NCBI GenBank assembly: GCA_963697165.1
Contig: CAVOMX010000025.1
Span: forward strand, 118,525 to 182,524
Length of the DNA: 64,000 bases
Reading direction: 5' to 3'
Source: Candidatus Bathyarchaeota archaeon
GTDB lineage: Archaea; Thermoproteota; Bathyarchaeia; Bathyarchaeales; Bathyarchaeaceae
Position 1 is the first letter of the stretch; each line of letters starts with the position of its first letter. Below are positions 26,524-34,969 of this stretch, one piece after another. A program made the translations under genes and the position numbers. The notes beneath the pieces were generated by a model. The model was not told the DNA's origin. It searched no databases and saw only the letters and a list, made by a program, of their open reading frames with translations.

Positions 26524-27069
26524 TTGAAAAACATGACAATAACAGTAATCGACGTCGCCGCAGCCATGTGGTTTATTTTCCCAGCGTACTGTGCCAACGC
26601 AGCCCCTGTCATCTTCGGCGGAGGCAAATCCATGGATTTCGGCAAAAAATTTGTGGACGGCAAACCATTCCTTGGATCCCACAAAACATTCAGAGGATTC
26701 TTGGCGGGCATTATCGTGGGAACGTTAGTTGGAGCAGCGCAAACAGTCATCTTTGAACAGTTTCTATTTCAATACAGCCCCCAGTTTGAATACAGCATAC
26801 TGCTTGGATTTGTGCTGTCTCTAGGAGCTTTAACAGGCGACTTGATAGAATCATTCATTAAAAGGCGGCTAAACCGTTCTCCCGGAAGCTCGCTTCCAGT
26901 AGCGGATCAGATAGACTTCATACTGGGAGCATTCCTCTTTTCCATCCCAGTTTCGTCCCCCTCTTTGGTTTCGGCTCTGATAATTCTCTTGATAACAATC
27001 CCGATACACCTGTTAACAAACCTAGGCGCTGCTCTTTTGAACATGAAAAACAAAGGAAAAAGCAGGTGA
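26524..27069 (+). CDS. carS: CDP-archaeol synthase
   Basis: PAYCANAAP, HKTFRG, GDLIESFIKRR, DQIDF. Confidence 0.92.
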   Translation: MKNMTITVIDVAAAMWFIFPAYCANAAPVIFGGGKSMDFGKKFVDGKPFLGSHKTFRGFLAGIIVGTLVGAAQTVIFEQFLFQYSPQFEYSILLGFVLSLGALTGDLIESFIKRRLNRSPGSSLPVADQIDFILGAFLFSIPVSSPSLVSALIILLITIPIHLLTNLGAALLNMKNKGKSR

Positions 27070-27104: not shown

Positions 27105-27527
27105 CTAGCCTAAGCTGGCTAACAGATTTTGTTCAAGTAAAAGATAGGCTAACAGAAGTAGAGCACAGCCAACCAGAAGGAACCTGTATGCTTGGCGGGG
27201 GTTATACGCGTACTTTGTGCTTCTATATGCCACAAGAAAGCCCACGACTCCCATAGCATAGAAAATCATGATGATTATGCTCTCCAAGAGCAACTGCTCA
27301 GAAATCCCATAAGGATAGAAACTGATTATTCTTCCAGTAGAACCGACGATTGCTACGATGGGCTGGATCAGCAGGTCGTAGACTCCGCCTGCAAACAGGA
27401 ATAGTGAAGCAGCAACAACCGCGGTGGCAACAACAAATAAGGAAGGTTTAGCAGTTAGTATTCTCTCGTAAGTTTTCTGCAACGAAAAGGCAAGAGATGA
27501 AAGTTGTTTACTAAAACTTTTAGCCAT
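27105..27527 (-). CDS. OSTC/DC2 (OST3/OST6 family)-like membrane protein
   Basis: FLFAGGVYDLL..P...FYPYGISEQLLLE...MGVVGF; three TMs. Confidence 0.65.
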   Translation of the reverse strand: MAKSFSKQLSSLAFSLQKTYERILTAKPSLFVVATAVVAASLFLFAGGVYDLLIQPIVAIVGSTGRIISFYPYGISEQLLLESIIIMIFYAMGVVGFLVAYRSTKYAYNPRQAYRFLLVGCALLLLAYLLLEQNLLASLG

Positions 27528-27530
27528 AGT

Positions 27531-27743
27531 TTATCCATCCTTGTTCATCAATAGATGCTCTGCAAGTTCTTTTGCCCAAGCGCCTGTGTATGAATTCTCC
27601 ACAACAGCTTTTAAATATTCCTTCCAAGAGACGCCCGCAGTCCTTTGCCAAGTTTCAAATTTCTGAACAACAGCACCGTAAGCTCTTTCGTGGAACTCGC
27701 AATATTTCTCTACAGCGTCTCTGCCACAAACAATGCACTTCAC
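27531..27743 (-). CDS. Small Zn-finger hypothetical protein
   Basis: CxxC...YCxxH; overlaps the topA stop. Confidence 0.75.
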   Translation of the reverse strand: MKCIVCGRDAVEKYCEFHERAYGAVVQKFETWQRTAGVSWKEYLKAVVENSYTGAWAKELAEHLLMNKDG

Positions 27744-29879
27744 GGTTTTTTCCTCCGCTTATCCTTAAGAGAGCAATCGAGATTGAAGCACATGTTCCAG
27801 GGGTTCTTGCCTCTGAGCCACACCAGAACAGTTGGCCAGCCACACGCTTTACAGTTGCTTTTGGCGGGTTTAATGGTTCCACGTTGAGGAAGAGGAAAAG
27901 ACGTTTTACATATACCTTTGAAGTAGTTGGTGCAGCCAATGAAGCGCTTTCTAGTCGTCCGCGAATAGATAATCATAAGTTCGCCTGTGCCACAATTTGG
28001 GCATCTTCCCACAGTTCGTTCCTGTATTTCCGCTCTCGTAGTGGCTTTACTCAAGGCTTCGCCGATACTTTCTTCGTTTTCTTTGAATTGTTCCAGCTGG
28101 GACTTCAGCTGCTCAACAACTTCTGCGATAACAGTTTCCCGCCTCATTTTACCGTTTTGGATTTGTTCCATTTTACCCTCAAGGTCTTGAGTGAGCATCG
28201 CCGAGACTAGAACCGAAGCGTACCTGCCGAGAACATCGATGATATCGAAGCCCAGCTCAGTCACCACAATTCTCTCATCCATGATGTATTCGCGGTTGTA
28301 AAGAGTCTGAATGATATCTGCTCGGGTTGCCTTAGTTCCGATTCCAAGCTCTTCCATCTTATTAAGGAGACTACTTGGATTGTAACGAGGCGGGGGGCAG
28401 GTGAATTTGTCTTCCCGTATGACCCGCCGCAGTCGAACAGTAGCCCCTTCTTTGAGTGGAGGCAAAAGCACCTCCTCGGCACGAACGTAGGGCTTGTAGT
28501 ATTCCATCCACCCTTCCTTCACAAGCCGTCTTCCCCTCAAAAAGAAGTTGTGATTGTTTACTTCTAGGCGCGCCTTTATACTCTCTTTGAGTGCATCCTC
28601 CCCGAAAACAGCCATGAACCGTCGGACAATAAGGTCCCAAATCCTCTTCTCTGGCGCGCCCAAGGGCTTTTCTGGTAGGTTTCCTGTTGGATAAACCGCA
28701 GGATGGGCGGAGTCGTCTTTGGCGCCCTCTCGTGGCTTGAGTTCTTCGTTTTCTAGAAGTTTTGAGGCTAACTTTTTGTAACCAAATTGTCTTTTGAGGG
28801 AGCTGAGAATCTTTCTGTAGTCTATTATGAGAGGCAGTTTCTGGCTGCTTGTCCTTGGATATGAGATTAAGGCGTCAAGATATAGGCGCTGAGCGATTAC
28901 TAAGGTGCGTCGTGGAGTGTAACCGAAGAGGCTGTAGGCTTCCCGCTGTAGTGTGCCCACATCGAAGGGCACAGGAGGTTTCTGGTGAACCGTTCTTACG
29001 TTAATCTTGGCGACTTCTCCAGTTTTGTCTGCACAGGCTCGCAGAACAGCATCAGCTTCCGCGCTTGTTTCAATTCGTTTTCTTTCATATTCTGCCTCAA
29101 CGACAGAGTTTAGGATTTCAGCCTCAGCAATTATTTCCCAGTATGGGGTGGGCACAAAGCTGCGGATTGCCTTCTCTCTTGAAGCCAGAAACTGGAGGGT
29201 GGGTCCCTGCACTCTTCCCGTGCTTAAGGTTGAGTATCTGCCGCTCCAGCGGCGCGCAGCTAAAGTTAAAGCCCGTGAAAGGTTTATGCCGTATAGCCAA
29301 TCCACTTCATGTCTGGTTCTTCCAGCTTCTATGAGCTTAAAATCTAGGTGACGGAAGAGGCTCTTCGTATGCTTTTTCTAACTCGCTCTTCATGAGAGTA
29401 GAAAATCGCATCCTTTTTGCTGAAGCGTCCTTGTTGCCGCAGGCATACTTCAGTATGCAGTATCCGATGAGGCTGCCTTCAATGTCGTAGTCGCAAGCTG
29501 ACATAAACTCGTCAGCATCATGGGACAGCTCCGAAAAGGTTTCAACCCAATTACTTATCGTCTTTGATCCTCGCTCTGCTAGGTGCCGCGGTGTCCACCT
29601 GAAATTGAAGACAGGATAATAGTTTCGTTTTCCTCTTTCTTGGACGATAGTGTAGAGATGTCCGATGGCGGGAATAACAACAAGCTGTCTGTCTCTTTGG
29701 GCAACGAAGTAGGTTACACCATTTTTTTTAAGATGCTTTGGCTTGCCTTGCCGGTCAAGGGCATATGCGATTCTTTTTGCTGCATCCGGTTTTTCGGTGA
29801 CTATCAGGGTATATTTTTCACATTTTTGTGTAACTATCGAGTCTGTACCAGAATTATCCTTTGCTGATTCTGGCGACAT
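27740..29879 (-). CDS. topA: DNA topoisomerase IA, frameshift near 29330
   Basis: TOPRIM EKP...DYDIEG, GRVQGP, ISYPRT, C-terminal Zn ribbons. Confidence 0.93.
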
Positions 29880-29939
29880 TGTACCTAATCAGTGGTTGAA
29901 ATTAGAGATACTATATTAAAACTTTCTAGTTGGTAATTG

Positions 29940-32100
29940 GTCAGTATTGTAGTACCCTAGAGAATTTACTCTAGTAATATCATTCTTCTGCTTTCAACAT
30001 AATATGACTGCTAAAACCGTATTAGTTGGTACTTTCCTTTTCTTTTAGATTGCGTGCTTCTAATATCTCAAGTTCATACTTCTTTTGTGCTTTAGCCCCA
30101 AAACTTTCCCTCATTTGTCTTGCCCATATACAGAGAAAAATGAAACTAATAATTCAGAAGACTATTAAGATAATATCCGACAGTGTAAAATTCGAATTTA
30201 TAAAAATTAAAAGTCCTACAGGTTAACAGAAGATATTTTGGTTTCTAATGGTACAACAGAAAGGAAAGAAGAGAGTATACACACAAAACCTAACGAGAAG
30301 AAAGGAAGATAGTTGGGTAATTGTCTTGACCATTTTGGATTTTTATCTGCTATTATTCTTCTTTTCTTTAGATTTGTTTCTCAGTTAAAGTCTTCATCTT
30401 TACTTTCAATACACATAGAAATGTAGGTTCCTGTACTAAGTAATACTGTCTTGTAGACTTTGAATCTTGTAACCTACTGTGAGAATTATTGTTATAGGTA
30501 ATAAAAAGAGATAAGGTCGATAAAGTGTAGTATCCTGTATTGCATAGCCTAAGAGTGTTGCAGTTACCAATATCGTATAAAGAGTCAAGTTATCAATTCT
30601 TATCTAAATTCAAATATTGTTTTTCTAACACTCTTGTACTCTTCAATAAGATGGTCATTAGACAATCTGAAACCCCCTGTATTTGGTATGATAAACAAAA
30701 TAGGATATTTGTTCTTTAAGTATTTGTTCTTAGTAAAATCTCTACTTAGCGGTAGTTTGTACAGCAATAGAAAAGTAGTTTGTTCACTTCTTAGAAATCA
30801 GGTGGTTTTATATAATATCCTCCTAAAACTGCACATTCACAATTCTCGTTAAGCAAACATATAGACAAAATGTAGACACAATCGTTCATACCCCATCTAC
30901 CCCCAATATAGGCTTTATAGAGTAAATAAAACAGGTTTTTAATGCGTAAAACTGGATTTTATAAAATAAACTAAATTAAGCGTAAAATAGAGTTAAGATA
31001 TTACCTGTACATAGACGAATATTGGTTAAGGTCTCCTGGTGACCTTAAGCTATATAATATAATTAATAAAAACTTTAACCTATTAACAAAATGTACAGAT
31101 CTGATATACAGTGGTAGAGCCTGTTCACTGTGTAATGTGCTACAAGTAGTTTAGTTTATCCTTGTTTGTATCTTTGCTCAGGTGCTACTTAGGTGCTTAC
31201 TCAGGTGCTTGGTATTATCCAAAAATAGTGTTAATAGAGTACATGAACAACATTATAATACTATATATCATCTGTGTTTAATTGTCCCATCATTTTCATC
31301 CTTCTCTCCCATCTCTCAGAAGTCTAATCAACACCAGTCTTAACTCTACAATTAGCAGACTAGTTTAACACTGATAGGAACAATCTTTGAATGGAATGGG
31401 AAATCAAACACTGACAATTACAGAACCAAACCACATTCAAAGACTTCCTAACATAACGTAATTATTAATAACAAAGCTTTAATGTATATTCCATCGTATT
31501 ATAATTGCTGAGTCATCAAGGGGATCATTCAAAACATACCCTTAGCTCAACCGTTTTGGAATGTAAACTGTACATTGTTTTGTAAGACTGATATGAATTG
31601 GTTTTTAGCAAAGTTTAAATTCAAATATTTCATCTCTGAGGAAGAGCAGTACCCCAATCTGAACTGGTTCTATCTCCCCCTGATGACTCAGTTTATTATG
31701 ATTGGGATACTGCTTTCTTTCTCACCTAAATAAGAAAAATCGATTATCATTTGTACCAAGTTGGATGTTACCAAAGTATAATTTCAGTTCGGTGATAATT
31801 CACATCAAATTCTGGGAACAACACATTTGGGATGAAAGGTCGGAACGAGGAATATTTTTTTGGTACCTTACAGTTCCCTATTATTTGATTGTGTTTAGTG
31901 AACTGCTATACAGTAGTTTTCCATCAACACTTTCAGTCCATGCTTCTATCAGGCACTCAGAATTCTATATATACGTTGCGAGATATATTTGCAGTTCACC
32001 AAAAAGGGAGCCGTTTGAGGTTACGCATGCGCGCGTAGCCAATAGAAAAGTGTTTCTCGCGGCTTCCGCAATTCGTCATAATACATAAATAGTTTGTGAC
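29940..32100 (+). ncRNA. Candidate very large structured noncoding RNA (or array of structured RNAs)
   Basis: No convincing ORF; about 20 helices of 6-23 bp found by eye, arranged as abutting domains with crossing pairings; most G.U wobbles on + strand. Confidence 0.55.
31177..31210. repeat. Triple tandem repeat ctYaggtgct(t)a
   Basis: ctcaggtgcta cttaggtgctta ctcaggtgctt. Confidence 0.8.
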
Positions 32101-32133
32101 GGTTGTATTTGCTTCTATAACGGCTGTGATACA

Positions 32134-32316
32134 TTGCCTCAGCAGGTAGTTTGCGAAAAATGCGGTTTTATTCTATATGAGGGCACAGATTTGAAACCCC
32201 CAGATGAGATAATCCAAACTCACGAGGGAAAATGCCCTAAATGCGGCAAAAAAATTTCTTTTATGCCAAAAAAGGTTGACGTTAAATCCGCCGGGGACAC
32301 ATACAGAAAACGTTGA
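32134..32316 (+). CDS. Small Zn-ribbon protein
   Basis: CEKCG...CPKCG, TTG start. Confidence 0.8.
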   Translation: MPQQVVCEKCGFILYEGTDLKPPDEIIQTHEGKCPKCGKKISFMPKKVDVKSAGDTYRKR

Positions 32317-32422
32317 TGGTTTTGAGTCCTACAGAAGTTCATCTGCAGGGATGCTCATTTTTTTGAAGGAAAGAAATTAATTTCTCCAAGTATGATACCA
32401 AGATTTGAACGGGTAATGGAAA

Positions 32423-32548
32423 ATGGTGAAGTGGGCATGTATGAAGTGTGGACATAAATGGAGCGACGAAAACAAAATCGAGCCTAGGCAGTGCCCCATG
32501 TGTGGATGCGGCATCATCTACGTTCCGAGAGTCATCAAACAGAAGTAG
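32423..32548 (+). CDS. 41-aa Zn-ribbon protein (Rpo12/RpoP-like; not in the ORF track)
   Basis: MVKWACMKCGHKWSDENKIEPRQCPMCGCGIIYVPRVIKQK. Confidence 0.7.
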   Translation: MVKWACMKCGHKWSDENKIEPRQCPMCGCGIIYVPRVIKQK

Positions 32549-32659
32549 GTCAAACAGGAAATTGGCCGGGTATCTGGACATTCCAAATGATGCTTTTTGT
32601 ATCTAAGTTGCTGTCCGTTACTTTTGTTTGAGTGTAGATTAAAAAGTTAAAATATTTCT

Positions 32660-34969
32660 TTGTTCAAAAGAAGGGAGTTAATAAGTGTGGAATACCACAA
32701 GAAAAATATAGGTTCATTGCTTTCATTGACGAGAGAAGGGTTTGCGGTGAAGATTGGAAAAATATTTAGTAAAGAAAATGCAGTTAACGCCTTAACGAAC
32801 ATTGGAGCTCTTCGCTTCCGGATGTCTCATTCTTCTCTATTGCACATATCGCTACTGCTCGTTATTCTTGTTATAGCCGCCACGATTAGGCTGCTTCCGC
32901 TCCAATGGGGTTTCCAACTCTCAGAATTTGACCCTCACATTCATTACCGTTTAACCAAGTACATAGTTGATAACGGATTGTTTTCTTGGACATCATGGAC
33001 AGACATGATGAGCTGGTACCCGCAAGGATACAACATTTCAGGCGCAATTTATCCGGGGCTGGCAGTAACAGCAGCGATCTTTTATCAAATAGCTAATGCG
33101 CTGAATCTTGCTCCGGCGCCAATTCTCAGTTCAGAAGTTTATCATCCTCTAACCGCTGACCCTGTTTTCAATTTCTGTGTATTGTTTCCAGTGATTATGG
33201 CGACATTGACCGTTCTGGTTATCTACTTTGTTGGAAGAGACATGGGCGGCAAAGAAGTGGGGCTCTTTTCAGCATTCTTTTTAGCTCTAAGTTCAGCATA
33301 TATTAGCCGTACCACCCTTGGTTTCTTTGATGATGAAACCGTCGGAATCTTAGGCATCCTCTTGTTTGTCTTCTTCTTCCTGAGGTCTATTGACCCTGAA
33401 AGATCCATCAAAAGCACAGTTACATATGCAGTTGCCGGAGGATTATCATTAGGTTATCTCTTTTCGTCTTGGGGAGCAGCACTGTATCCTCTCGGAATTA
33501 CGTTGGTTTTCGTCTTTGTTCTACTCGTAATAAAACGATATTCAACTCGTCTCTTTATTTCATATAGCACAACATTTGCCGTTTCACTGTTAATAGCAAC
33601 AATGGTACCAAAGTTGGGAACATCATTTCTGACACAGCCTACAACCATAGCGGTTGTTGGAATGTTCCTTGTGCTATTCATCTACGAAATTTCTCGCCGC
33701 ATAAAAACCCCTAAAACGAAAACGATTTTTATTATTAGCTTCATAGCCTTGATTGTCACCTTGTTAGTTGCACTTTCAAGTTTCGGATTAATCGGGTCAC
33801 TAGGAGAGAAGTTTGTTTCAGTTATATTTCCCAATACACGTATAGGTGAAAGTGCGACACAACAACTTGTGCAGTCTGTGCAGGAACACAGACCAGCCAC
33901 TTGGGGATCATTTTACTATGACCTAGGCATAGGAATACTCTTCGTACCTATTGGCTTATTCTTTATAATACAGAATCCAACAAACCGCAATATTTTCCTC
34001 GCAATATTCGGTTTGACAGCCATCTACTTCGCAGGTTCATTTGCGCGGTTAACTCTGCTTTTGGCACCAGTCGTTAGCATCTTATGGGCATTAGCTTTGG
34101 TTCAGTTGATCAGACCCTTTGTTACAATATTGCGGGAAAACCCAAAAATCCCGAGACGTAAAATGCGTTTCAGACCTCGCGTGGGAAAGGAATTCAGTGC
34201 AGCATTCATCATCCTAATGTTCCTCTTGTTAACGGTTACCTTCGTATTACCAAGCAGCGGTTCAGATTATTCGAGAGTCATAAACCGCGCATATTCGCCT
34301 ACAACTATCGCTGCCTCGAGTTTACCACTTAGACCTAACGAAATCGTTAGCGATTGGCTAGATACACTCAATTGGATACGAATTAATCTGGACGACAATG
34401 CTGTGGTGGGGGCTTGGTGGGATTATGGATACTGGATCACAGCTATCGGCAACAAAACAACTCTTGCGGATAACGGTACAGTGAATACTACGAAGATAGG
34501 CGATATTGGGAGAATGTTCATTTCGAATGAAACTCAAGCCATAGAATGGCTAAAAGAATATGATGTAACGCATGTTTTGGTTTTTACAAGCTTTGGAACA
34601 GACGGACAATCTAACACAATATATGATGCAGGATATGGTGATGAAGGAAAATGGAGATGGATGGCAAAGATTGGCCAATTAGATGACACCCTATACGGAA
34701 ACTATACACTTGGAAAAGACTGGATAGACACAAACGAGAATGGTTCAGTAGACACGGATGAAATAGTAGATAATGCTATGGGAAACAGCACAGTATTGTA
34801 CAAACTTATGCACTACGCAAGTGACACTCTTGCTTTAGGTTCCTCAAGCATCCAGCTAGAACACTTTGATAAGGCATATTTCTCACAGAGCCCAGAAACA
34901 ATAAAATGGTTCGCAGACGCGAACGGTTACTTCGTAGCGGTAGTATGCGTGTATGAGGTCATCTACTAG
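32660..34969 (+). CDS. aglB: Oligosaccharyltransferase AglB/STT3
   Basis: EFDP, GFFDDE, SVQEH, WWDYG, DNGT motifs; many TMs. Confidence 0.95.
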   Translation: MFKRRELISVEYHKKNIGSLLSLTREGFAVKIGKIFSKENAVNALTNIGALRFRMSHSSLLHISLLLVILVIAATIRLLPLQWGFQLSEFDPHIHYRLTKYIVDNGLFSWTSWTDMMSWYPQGYNISGAIYPGLAVTAAIFYQIANALNLAPAPILSSEVYHPLTADPVFNFCVLFPVIMATLTVLVIYFVGRDMGGKEVGLFSAFFLALSSAYISRTTLGFFDDETVGILGILLFVFFFLRSIDPERSIKSTVTYAVAGGLSLGYLFSSWGAALYPLGITLVFVFVLLVIKRYSTRLFISYSTTFAVSLLIATMVPKLGTSFLTQPTTIAVVGMFLVLFIYEISRRIKTPKTKTIFIISFIALIVTLLVALSSFGLIGSLGEKFVSVIFPNTRIGESATQQLVQSVQEHRPATWGSFYYDLGIGILFVPIGLFFIIQNPTNRNIFLAIFGLTAIYFAGSFARLTLLLAPVVSILWALALVQLIRPFVTILRENPKIPRRKMRFRPRVGKEFSAAFIILMFLLLTVTFVLPSSGSDYSRVINRAYSPTTIAASSLPLRPNEIVSDWLDTLNWIRINLDDNAVVGAWWDYGYWITAIGNKTTLADNGTVNTTKIGDIGRMFISNETQAIEWLKEYDVTHVLVFTSFGTDGQSNTIYDAGYGDEGKWRWMAKIGQLDDTLYGNYTLGKDWIDTNENGSVDTDEIVDNAMGNSTVLYKLMHYASDTLALGSSSIQLEHFDKAYFSQSPETIKWFADANGYFVAVVCVYEVIY

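Follow-up and report, generated by a model that had tools for sequence, protein, structure and literature searches.

An AT-rich insertion between topA and aglB

The DNA studied here is a 64,000-nucleotide stretch from a Candidatus Bathyarchaeota archaeon, referred to below as the window (G000:C25:118525-182524). G000 is the source genome (1.99 Mb, 25 contigs, GC 0.414), other G numbers denote comparison genomes, and C stands for contig. In the window, a type IA topoisomerase gene (topA) lies on the minus strand, with its body at 27740-29305 and its Toprim part at 29337-29879. It diverges from two small Zn-ribbon open reading frames (ORFs) on the plus strand (32134-32316 and 32423-32548), which are followed on the same strand by aglB, encoding AglB/STT3 (32660-34969). 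On the far side of topA is a CDP-archaeol synthase gene (26524-27069, plus strand); all of these assignments come from Pfam. Between topA and the first Zn-ribbon ORF lies an AT-rich gap, which an earlier note on this DNA had proposed to encode a densely structured noncoding RNA of ~2.1 kb. We analysed the interval 29880-32134 (2255 bases) and consider it likely that 29890-32067 is instead ~2.1 kb of inserted DNA found only in this lineage, a decaying mosaic that carries an extra copy of a hairpin RNA of the genus.

The gap is as AT-rich as had been claimed. Its GC content over 29900-31850 is 0.29-0.36, compared with 0.44-0.52 in flanking genes (topA) and 0.414 genome-wide. The flanking genes read as usual under translation table 11, and the longest ORF in the gap under that table is 128 amino acids (aa). 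Pfam recognizes no family in that ORF or in the next longest (99 aa), and a tRNA/tmRNA scan found neither kind of gene in the gap. The statement that the gap holds "no credible gene" was right in that no ORF exceeds 128 aa, but it overlooked a broken gene that is recognizable at 30025-30659 on the minus strand. Rfam 15, whose models also cover riboswitches and RsaE, gave no match at gathering score anywhere in the 64-kb window, which agrees with the view that the gap is not RNase P, signal recognition particle RNA, rRNA, or a group I or II intron. Lowering the threshold to E<=10 over 29700-32700 produced only six weak matches, scoring 7-19 bits against family thresholds of 33-70, and none lies on the plus strand of the hairpin described below.

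Synteny identifies the gap as extra DNA of the G000 lineage, since the interval is absent from all five genus relatives compared. The distance from the topA start to aglB is 510-1320 bp in all five, but 2780 bp here. Similarity to the relatives ends at 29817-29890 and restarts at 32068 (three relatives), 32075 (one), or 32108 (one), which delimits a lineage-specific AT-rich insertion at 29890-32067 in the divergent topA/Zn-ribbon promoter spacer; one relative additionally matches 31918-31972. From the restart to the Zn-ribbon gene, 32068-32133 (plus strand) is 73-81% conserved with all five relatives and represents the ancestral promoter region of that gene. The covariation analysis of the topA-aglB interval that had been proposed in the earlier note therefore has no syntenic homologues to compare. 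At the insertion spot, G001 has only ~120 bp, and the closest relative, G019, carries a different and unrelated filler of ~700 bp at the same intergenic site (L037 229-928, G019:C55). Foreign DNA may have landed in this spacer repeatedly. Over 29880-31400, any match at all occurs in only 4 of 24 genus genomes, where the matching pieces are sited elsewhere. The right junction is crossed by short contigs of three public DNA runs (31788/31809/31872 to 32163/32234) at ~95% identity. A search of the insertion borders for flanking direct repeats and att-like sites found none.

What kind of DNA was inserted? The largest recognizable piece is the broken gene, a 635-nt minus-strand segment (30025-30659) that matches an intact 212-aa membrane-protein ORF of G019 (L030 1493-2131, G019:C77) with E 2.7e-39. 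Since this match contains 10 stops and consists of two overlapping matches in different frames, we regard the segment as a pseudogene. At the DNA level, 30023-30657 is 75% identical to the G019 locus over 641 columns, and pieces of the pseudogene are visible among the stop-to-stop ORFs of the gap. The 212-aa protein has no Pfam or PHROG family and only six homologues among 5.8 billion proteins. In G019, the intact gene has as its neighbor a gene for a 332-aa Cys/His-rich protein (L030 94-1092). Pfam and PHROG place this protein in no family either, none of 50,697 phage records matches it, and a search of G000 at E<=1 turned up no remnant of it. With no classified match for the 332-aa protein, the inserted DNA is not assignable to a known kind of mobile element.

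Could 29940-32100 nevertheless be one very large architectural or catalytic RNA? The nine helices named in its support all exist at their coordinates, eight of them perfect or with one G.U pair and the 17-bp helix with one mismatch, and a promoter-like motif at 29907-29938 points into the gap. Moreover, the right-hand third of the gap (31400-32100) folds better than shuffled sequence, with z -4.29 when ~720-nt chunks were folded so as to allow long-range pairs. The same calculation, however, gave z +0.81 for the left third (29940-30660) and +3.27 for the middle third (30660-31400), so that roughly two thirds of the interval folds like shuffles. In 200-nt windows the mean z is close to zero on both strands (-0.09 on the plus strand, -0.21 on the minus strand), and the only windows that stand out are those at 31500-31799 (z -3.3/-4.1 and -3.05/-1.9). 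The longest stem of the shuffles averages 13.6 bp, which puts the 13-bp AT helix 30966-78/31147-59 at chance level. In addition, the syntenic site lacks the interval in every relative compared, 635 of the 2255 bases are minus-strand pseudogene, other pieces have homologues of their own at differing places, and Rfam has no match. We give the single giant RNA next to no probability, and by the criteria that the earlier note itself had set, it is already refuted. Its alternative wording, an array of RNAs, holds for a small part, the covarying small-RNA gene at 31636-31726 described below. Its preference for the plus strand likewise stands for that one RNA, which scores 88.8 bits on the plus strand and 28.8 bits on the minus strand.

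Two points weigh against reading the gap as inserted, largely unstructured DNA. First, placing an insertion here rather than a deletion in the relatives is an argument from parsimony, and the direction of the change is to that extent presumptive. Second, complementary runs of at least 9 bp (ungapped, G.U allowed, span <=260 nt) number 102 in the interval and 69-72 in dinucleotide shuffles (z ~3.6-4.1). This excess is unremarkable for the genome, since two of nine random 2255-nt genome segments have a stem excess of z >=2.2, one of them 4.7.

A genus-wide hairpin RNA

The one strongly folding stretch of the gap coincides with a segment that has homologues elsewhere, element A (31428-31724, plus strand), whose 3' part is the hairpin RNA. 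The window copy of this RNA, at 31636-31726 on the plus strand, is a paralogous copy that matches a covariance model of the genus-wide family with 88.8 bits (E 5.5e-20). Its predicted fold has an energy of -34.5 kcal/mol (z -6.44) and consists of a stem P1 (31646-59/31700-13), a stem P2 with C31689 bulged (31662-68/31686-93), an apical stem (31672-74/31682-84), and a UCCCCCU loop (31675-81), followed by a T-rich tail. Relative to the consensus, the window copy has one C.A mismatch in P1 and is one base short on each strand of P2. A TATA-like box at 31614-31621 (plus strand) aligns with the conserved upstream block of the family. The usual spacing of archaeal TATA boxes would place the start site of the small RNA (sRNA) a few nucleotides before P1. 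The gap holds no second copy of the hairpin; the next-best model score is 9.8 bits.

An alignment of 23 copies defines the family as an RNA of ~85-93 nt with a 14-bp P1, an internal loop, an 8-bp P2 with a bulged C, a 3-bp apical stem, and the 7-nt UCCCCCU loop. Behind the hairpin comes a T-rich tail, and a TATA-like block ~30 nt upstream of P1 is conserved. Searches with blastn detected the core in all 24 genus genomes searched and in none of 16 genomes of other families. The covariance model R1 (93 positions, 27 pairs) found the RNA in 16 of 16 genus genomes, in none of 9 genomes belonging to other genera of the family, and in none of 95 genomes belonging to other families of the order, with 1-9 model hits per genome and six copies in G000. 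In most relatives one copy occupies a home position between a topoisomerase VI-A gene, usually with an HTH regulator gene next to it, and an operon that ends in a JAB-domain protein gene; the home copy of G000 is C22:83045-83137. An unfiltered search of the syntenic site at eight loci in other genera of the family gave a best score of 15.6 bits (E 0.12, bare stems only), and no homologue was recognized. A scan of public genome records for the core pattern returned 32 loci, of which 28 are labeled Bathyarchaeia, Bathyarchaeota, or Candidatus Bathyarchaeum, three "Thermoproteota archaeon", and one "Candidatus Sifarchaeum subterraneum". We take the genus that bears the hairpin RNA to be Candidatus Bathyarchaeum (Bathyarchaeia).

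Compensatory changes maintain the base pairs of the family. For this analysis, named genomes and metagenomes were scanned for an exact 21-nt pattern spanning the loop and the 3' strand of P2, and the 98 sequences obtained (83 distinct) were aligned on the model. Among the 83 distinct sequences, 98.2% of cells are paired, compared with 31-47% when the partners are slid. Two-sided changes occur in 16 of the 27 pairs, whereas shuffles give 4.6 +/- 1.5, and none of 500 reached the observed value. All 14 pairs of P1 covary. The loop UCCCCCU is invariant in the gathered set. Of 122 distinct loci, 79 have a TATA-like hexamer, TTTA[AT][AT], whose first base lies 57-60 nt ahead of the loop. Rfam 15 does not contain this RNA, as judged from scans of the gap and of three family loci from relatives, the latter yielding one unrelated weak hit. 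Titles and abstract openings in the literature on Bathyarchaeum, Bathyarchaeia, and Bathyarchaeota mention no regulatory RNA. On the strength of the covariation, we regard the predicted hairpin RNA as a real gene family, new and restricted to its genus.

Several points weigh against this conclusion or narrow it. Because R1 was built from close relatives (effective sequence number 1.38), the absence of the RNA outside the genus may reflect limited sensitivity. The 21-nt selection pattern builds some of the invariance of the inner part into the gathered set, and alignment to the model makes the pair counts lean toward it. The sRNA transcript, including its start and end, is a prediction from sequence. 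Finally, the terminator is weak: of the 122 loci, 62 have a longest T run of 3 downstream of P1, 27 one of 4, and only 23 one of at least 5. With so weak a tail, read-through into downstream genes, and with it a role in cis, is possible.

Is the hairpin an RNA gene at all, or is it a DNA-level element, such as a miniature transposable element, a recombination site, or a protein-binding palindrome, whose apparent RNA structure is a by-product of its inverted repeat? The family is multi-copy and variable in number, as the model hits per genome show, and copies sit in variable regions. The window copy itself lies in an insertion beside a pseudogene whose intact G019 homologue adjoins the gene for the unclassified 332-aa protein. 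The strands, however, are not equivalent. Besides the asymmetric scores of the window copy, the other copies listed on both strands score 94-112 bits on one strand and ~28-30 bits on the other. Many pairs are G.U on the plus strand, with UG in 34 and 50 of the 83 sequences at two P1 pairs, and these would read A.C on the opposite strand. Furthermore, one copy per genome is syntenic across species, the TATA-like box lies at a fixed distance, and the unit has no terminal inverted repeats or target duplications around it. A DNA-level element is therefore a very unlikely explanation of the family.

A role in cis deserves more attention. The hairpin could be the leader of a downstream gene, acting as an attenuator, a thermometer, or a protein-binding operator, rather than a trans-acting sRNA. 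In most relatives, a same-strand operon that encodes an unnamed 112-119-aa protein and the JAB-domain protein begins 100-180 nt downstream of the home copy, and the copies C9a, C9b, and G010:C24 lie 270-340 nt upstream of same-strand genes for secreted proteins. The short T tail of most loci is in keeping with such a role. On the other hand, the downstream genes vary from copy to copy, and the window copy has none. The promoter, hairpin, and T tail travel as one self-contained module, and the 14-bp closing stem begins no more than a few nucleotides from where transcription is predicted to start, a feature of stable small RNAs. In the copies inspected by eye, the start codons nearby are not complementary to any part of the hairpin. 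We consider a cis-acting leader unlikely.

Known classes of small RNA were also considered for the hairpin. Box C/D RNAs carry a C box (RUGAUGA) and a D box (CUGA) at their two ends, and H/ACA RNAs carry an ACA box after the basal stem together with a guide pocket. Inspection of the 23-sequence alignment by eye revealed no RUGAUGA near the 5' end, an internal CUGA and UGAUGG in the wrong order and at the wrong spacing, and TTTCT rather than ACA after the basal stem. The C/D and H/ACA models of Rfam gave no match to the gap or to the family loci. A hammerhead reading of the CUGAUGG and GAAA motifs, again judged by eye, is contradicted by the order and spacing of these motifs. The alignment also rules out a small conserved ORF that would span the hairpin. 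In the window, a 73-codon stop-to-stop frame with a hydrophobic end spans the hairpin (31512-31733, plus strand); it is probably meaningless, since stops or frame-shifting indels interrupt it in most family members.

Other pieces of the mosaic and neighboring features

Apart from the pseudogene and the hairpin RNA, the gap is a patchwork of short noncoding segments with matches on contigs C9, C11, C12, and C22 of G000 and at scattered spots in G019, G003, and G013. At its left end, 29907-29938 (plus strand) contains the TATA-like TATTAAAA singled out in the earlier note. It is a dispersed short repeat, 94% identical over 32 nt to C11:48930-48961 of G000, with 22-34-nt matches in G002 and G019; the wider segment 29905-30048 is 75% identical to G019:C11. 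Its resemblance to a promoter suggests that it may function as one. Farther in, a noncoding fragment with a TATA-like core (30784-30861, plus strand) is 82% identical over 78 nt to G003:C5, where no ORF lies beneath the match. The segment 31292-31453 (plus strand), also noncoding, is 89.5% identical over 162 nt to G019:C14 (L010/L034), and there a further copy of the hairpin RNA follows it at a distance of ~160 nt.

Downstream of the hairpin, element B (31752-31921, plus strand) is 87% identical to C12:134080-134249 and has further copies in G019, in at least five places, and in G013. Its TATA-like box and the next ~20 nt are best conserved, and the sequence downstream differs among copies. 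With a fold z of only -1.4, element B looks like a dispersed promoter or leader cassette. The G019 contig that holds the intact membrane-protein gene (C77) also carries copies of the hairpin RNA and of element B, and this stretch may be a variable or mobile region.

Some features in and around the gap stand apart from these modules. A 23-nt tandem duplication with a TTRCTCAGGTGCT core occupies 31174-31209, and exactly 23 nt are missing at 31177 in contigs of three public runs, which marks the duplication as a copy-number variant in natural populations. A GC-rich near-palindrome at 32019-32040, the last of the helices in the earlier note, lies ~30 nt upstream of the point where conservation restarts; this sequence could be a regulator-binding site for the Zn-ribbon/aglB promoter. 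The topA gene is split here into a 180-aa Toprim ORF and a 521-aa body, and is a single ORF of 706-728 aa in all five relatives. The break lies near 29337-29352, and one base at 29352 is absent from contigs of three public DNA runs; without it, topA reads as a single open frame of 712 aa. The split is either a recent frameshift or an assembly error. Near aglB, a 140-aa ORF (27105-27527, minus strand) weakly resembles OST3/OST6, at E 3.1e-4 and 20.7 bits where the cutoff is 27. If this match is real, the ORF could encode a membrane partner of the oligosaccharyltransferase.

The C-rich loop, its upstream arm, and candidate targets

What might the hairpin RNA do? Its exposed C-rich loop is invariant while the stem around it drifts, which suggests recognition through the loop sequence. 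One candidate partner lies close by. Upstream of the hairpin, an arm at 31508-31524 (plus strand) is complementary to the loop and the 3' side of P2, pairing with 31675-31691 at 16 of 17 positions. This is the 17-bp helix of the earlier note, and the pairing proved to be retained in all four copies with a long form (the window copy, C9a, C9b, and G019:C11). The one short-form copy compared has no arm-loop pairing. In the four long-form copies, and in these only, two overlapping TATA-like candidates are conserved just before the arm (31476-31505, plus strand). In the window, a run of five T residues follows the arm at 31602-06. The arm/sRNA duplex has a predicted energy of -26.5 to -32.8 kcal/mol in all four copies, compared with -9.9 to -13.9 for shuffled arms, and none of 300 shuffles of each copy did as well. 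The helix also shows a two-sided change, with GTC/GAC in the window and GCC/GGC in C9b.

Such arms are rare. With at most two mismatches allowed within 230 nt upstream, an anti-loop arm was found at 2 of 125 distinct loci, both in G000; the window copy, with three mismatches, and G019:C11 joined the set by alignment. The arm helix would occupy the loop and the 3' strand of P2, so the two structures compete, and folding 31500-31730 to minimum energy yields the hairpin rather than the arm helix. The arm is nonetheless not a product of chance. As part of a longer transcript it could mask the loop; as an RNA of its own it could be a decoy. Transcription of the arm is itself presumptive.

The loop complement also points to possible targets in trans. 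In G000, the complement of the loop, CCAUCAGGGGGAG, has two sites outside the RNA genes, both directly upstream of GGUG-N5-AUG and of ORFs with signal-peptide-like starts. In 25 genus genomes, the complementary 13-mer occurs 12 times, and its reversed control does not occur. Five of the 12 sites lie just before the ATG of an ORF, most of these ORFs having signal-peptide-like starts, and one lies before a start without an ORF. Three represent a single conserved coding site, two lie upstream of sRNA copies, and one is elsewhere. Extending the search to a 16-mer with two mismatches gave ~36 sites beyond the antisense strands of the RNA genes, many with UCAGGGGGAGGUG, compared with four for the reversed control.

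Small secreted proteins recur around these sites. The sRNA copies C9a and C9b lie ~300 nt upstream of genes for such proteins. The wider set comprises proteins of 160-235 aa without Pfam families, at C19:17784, C24:145919, C9:64870-65360, and C9:100910-101510 of G000 and at L094 (G008). Inspection by eye shows a common G-x-G-x-F/D-x-G-x-K/L motif at their C-termini, and their similarity in blastp is weak (E 0.002). Each gene of the set either follows an sRNA copy or bears a loop-complementary ribosome-binding site.

Our proposal is tentative: acting in trans, the sRNA may use its exposed C-rich loop (CUCCCCCUGAUGG) to bind mRNAs at extended, G-rich ribosome-binding sites (UCAGGGGGAGG) and would thereby damp their translation. 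Several of the candidate mRNAs encode small secreted proteins. In the long-form copies, the arm would then mask the loop within a longer transcript or serve as a separate decoy RNA. Three points weigh against such pairing. Because the 13-mer motif includes the Shine-Dalgarno core, reversing it gives too lenient a control. The target sites are few, and 3 of the 12 are a single conserved coding site. The two sites in G000 have near-identical leaders and may be paralogous. Beyond pairing in trans and a leader function in cis, the rest of the probability goes to a protein-binding or other role of the hairpin RNA. More speculatively, 31470-31726 could be a mobile two-part module, in which a C-rich-loop sRNA tunes the translation of secreted proteins through UCAGGGGGAGG and the arm RNA, with its 5' end on the loop, is its off-switch or decoy, spreading with promoter cassettes through variable regions. 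We regard this fuller picture as distinctly unlikely. If it were true, inserted DNA would bring its own copies of a host regulator.

The proposed pairing has parallels in bacteria. In Firmicutes, RsaE/RoxS and the hairpins of staphylococcal RNAIII are C-rich-loop sRNAs that pair with G-rich Shine-Dalgarno regions. Like them, the RNA described here would be a small RNA with its own (predicted) promoter and has a run of C residues, predicted to be unpaired, in a hairpin loop; its candidate sites read UCAGGGGGAGG. Unlike them, it is a single archaeal hairpin with a 14-bp closing stem, is known from one genus, and has no sequence or Rfam relation to them. The arm recalls RosA, a sponge or decoy for RoxS/FsrA, in being a second RNA segment with extended complementarity to an sRNA at its C-rich seed. 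However, the arm shares its strand and its mobile module with the hairpin, from which it is only ~150 nt away on the upstream side, and may for this reason be a mask acting within one molecule instead of a sponge in its own right. As for the gap as a whole, the large bacterial noncoding RNAs OLE, GOLLD, HEARO, and ROOL are conserved over many genomes, with covarying long-range helices. The gap resembles them as a long, gene-free noncoding interval in a gene-dense region, but it occurs in one lineage only, mostly folds like shuffles, and holds a pseudogene.

Why does this locus matter? It cautions that AT-rich insertion debris can be misread as RNA structure, and it reveals two species whose topA/aglB spacers acquired different extra DNA. 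Within that debris lies a member of an apparently undescribed family of small RNAs that is specific to abundant, barely cultivated sediment archaea. The pairing of arm and loop, together with a testable idea about targets, offers handles for work in the existing enrichment culture of the genus.

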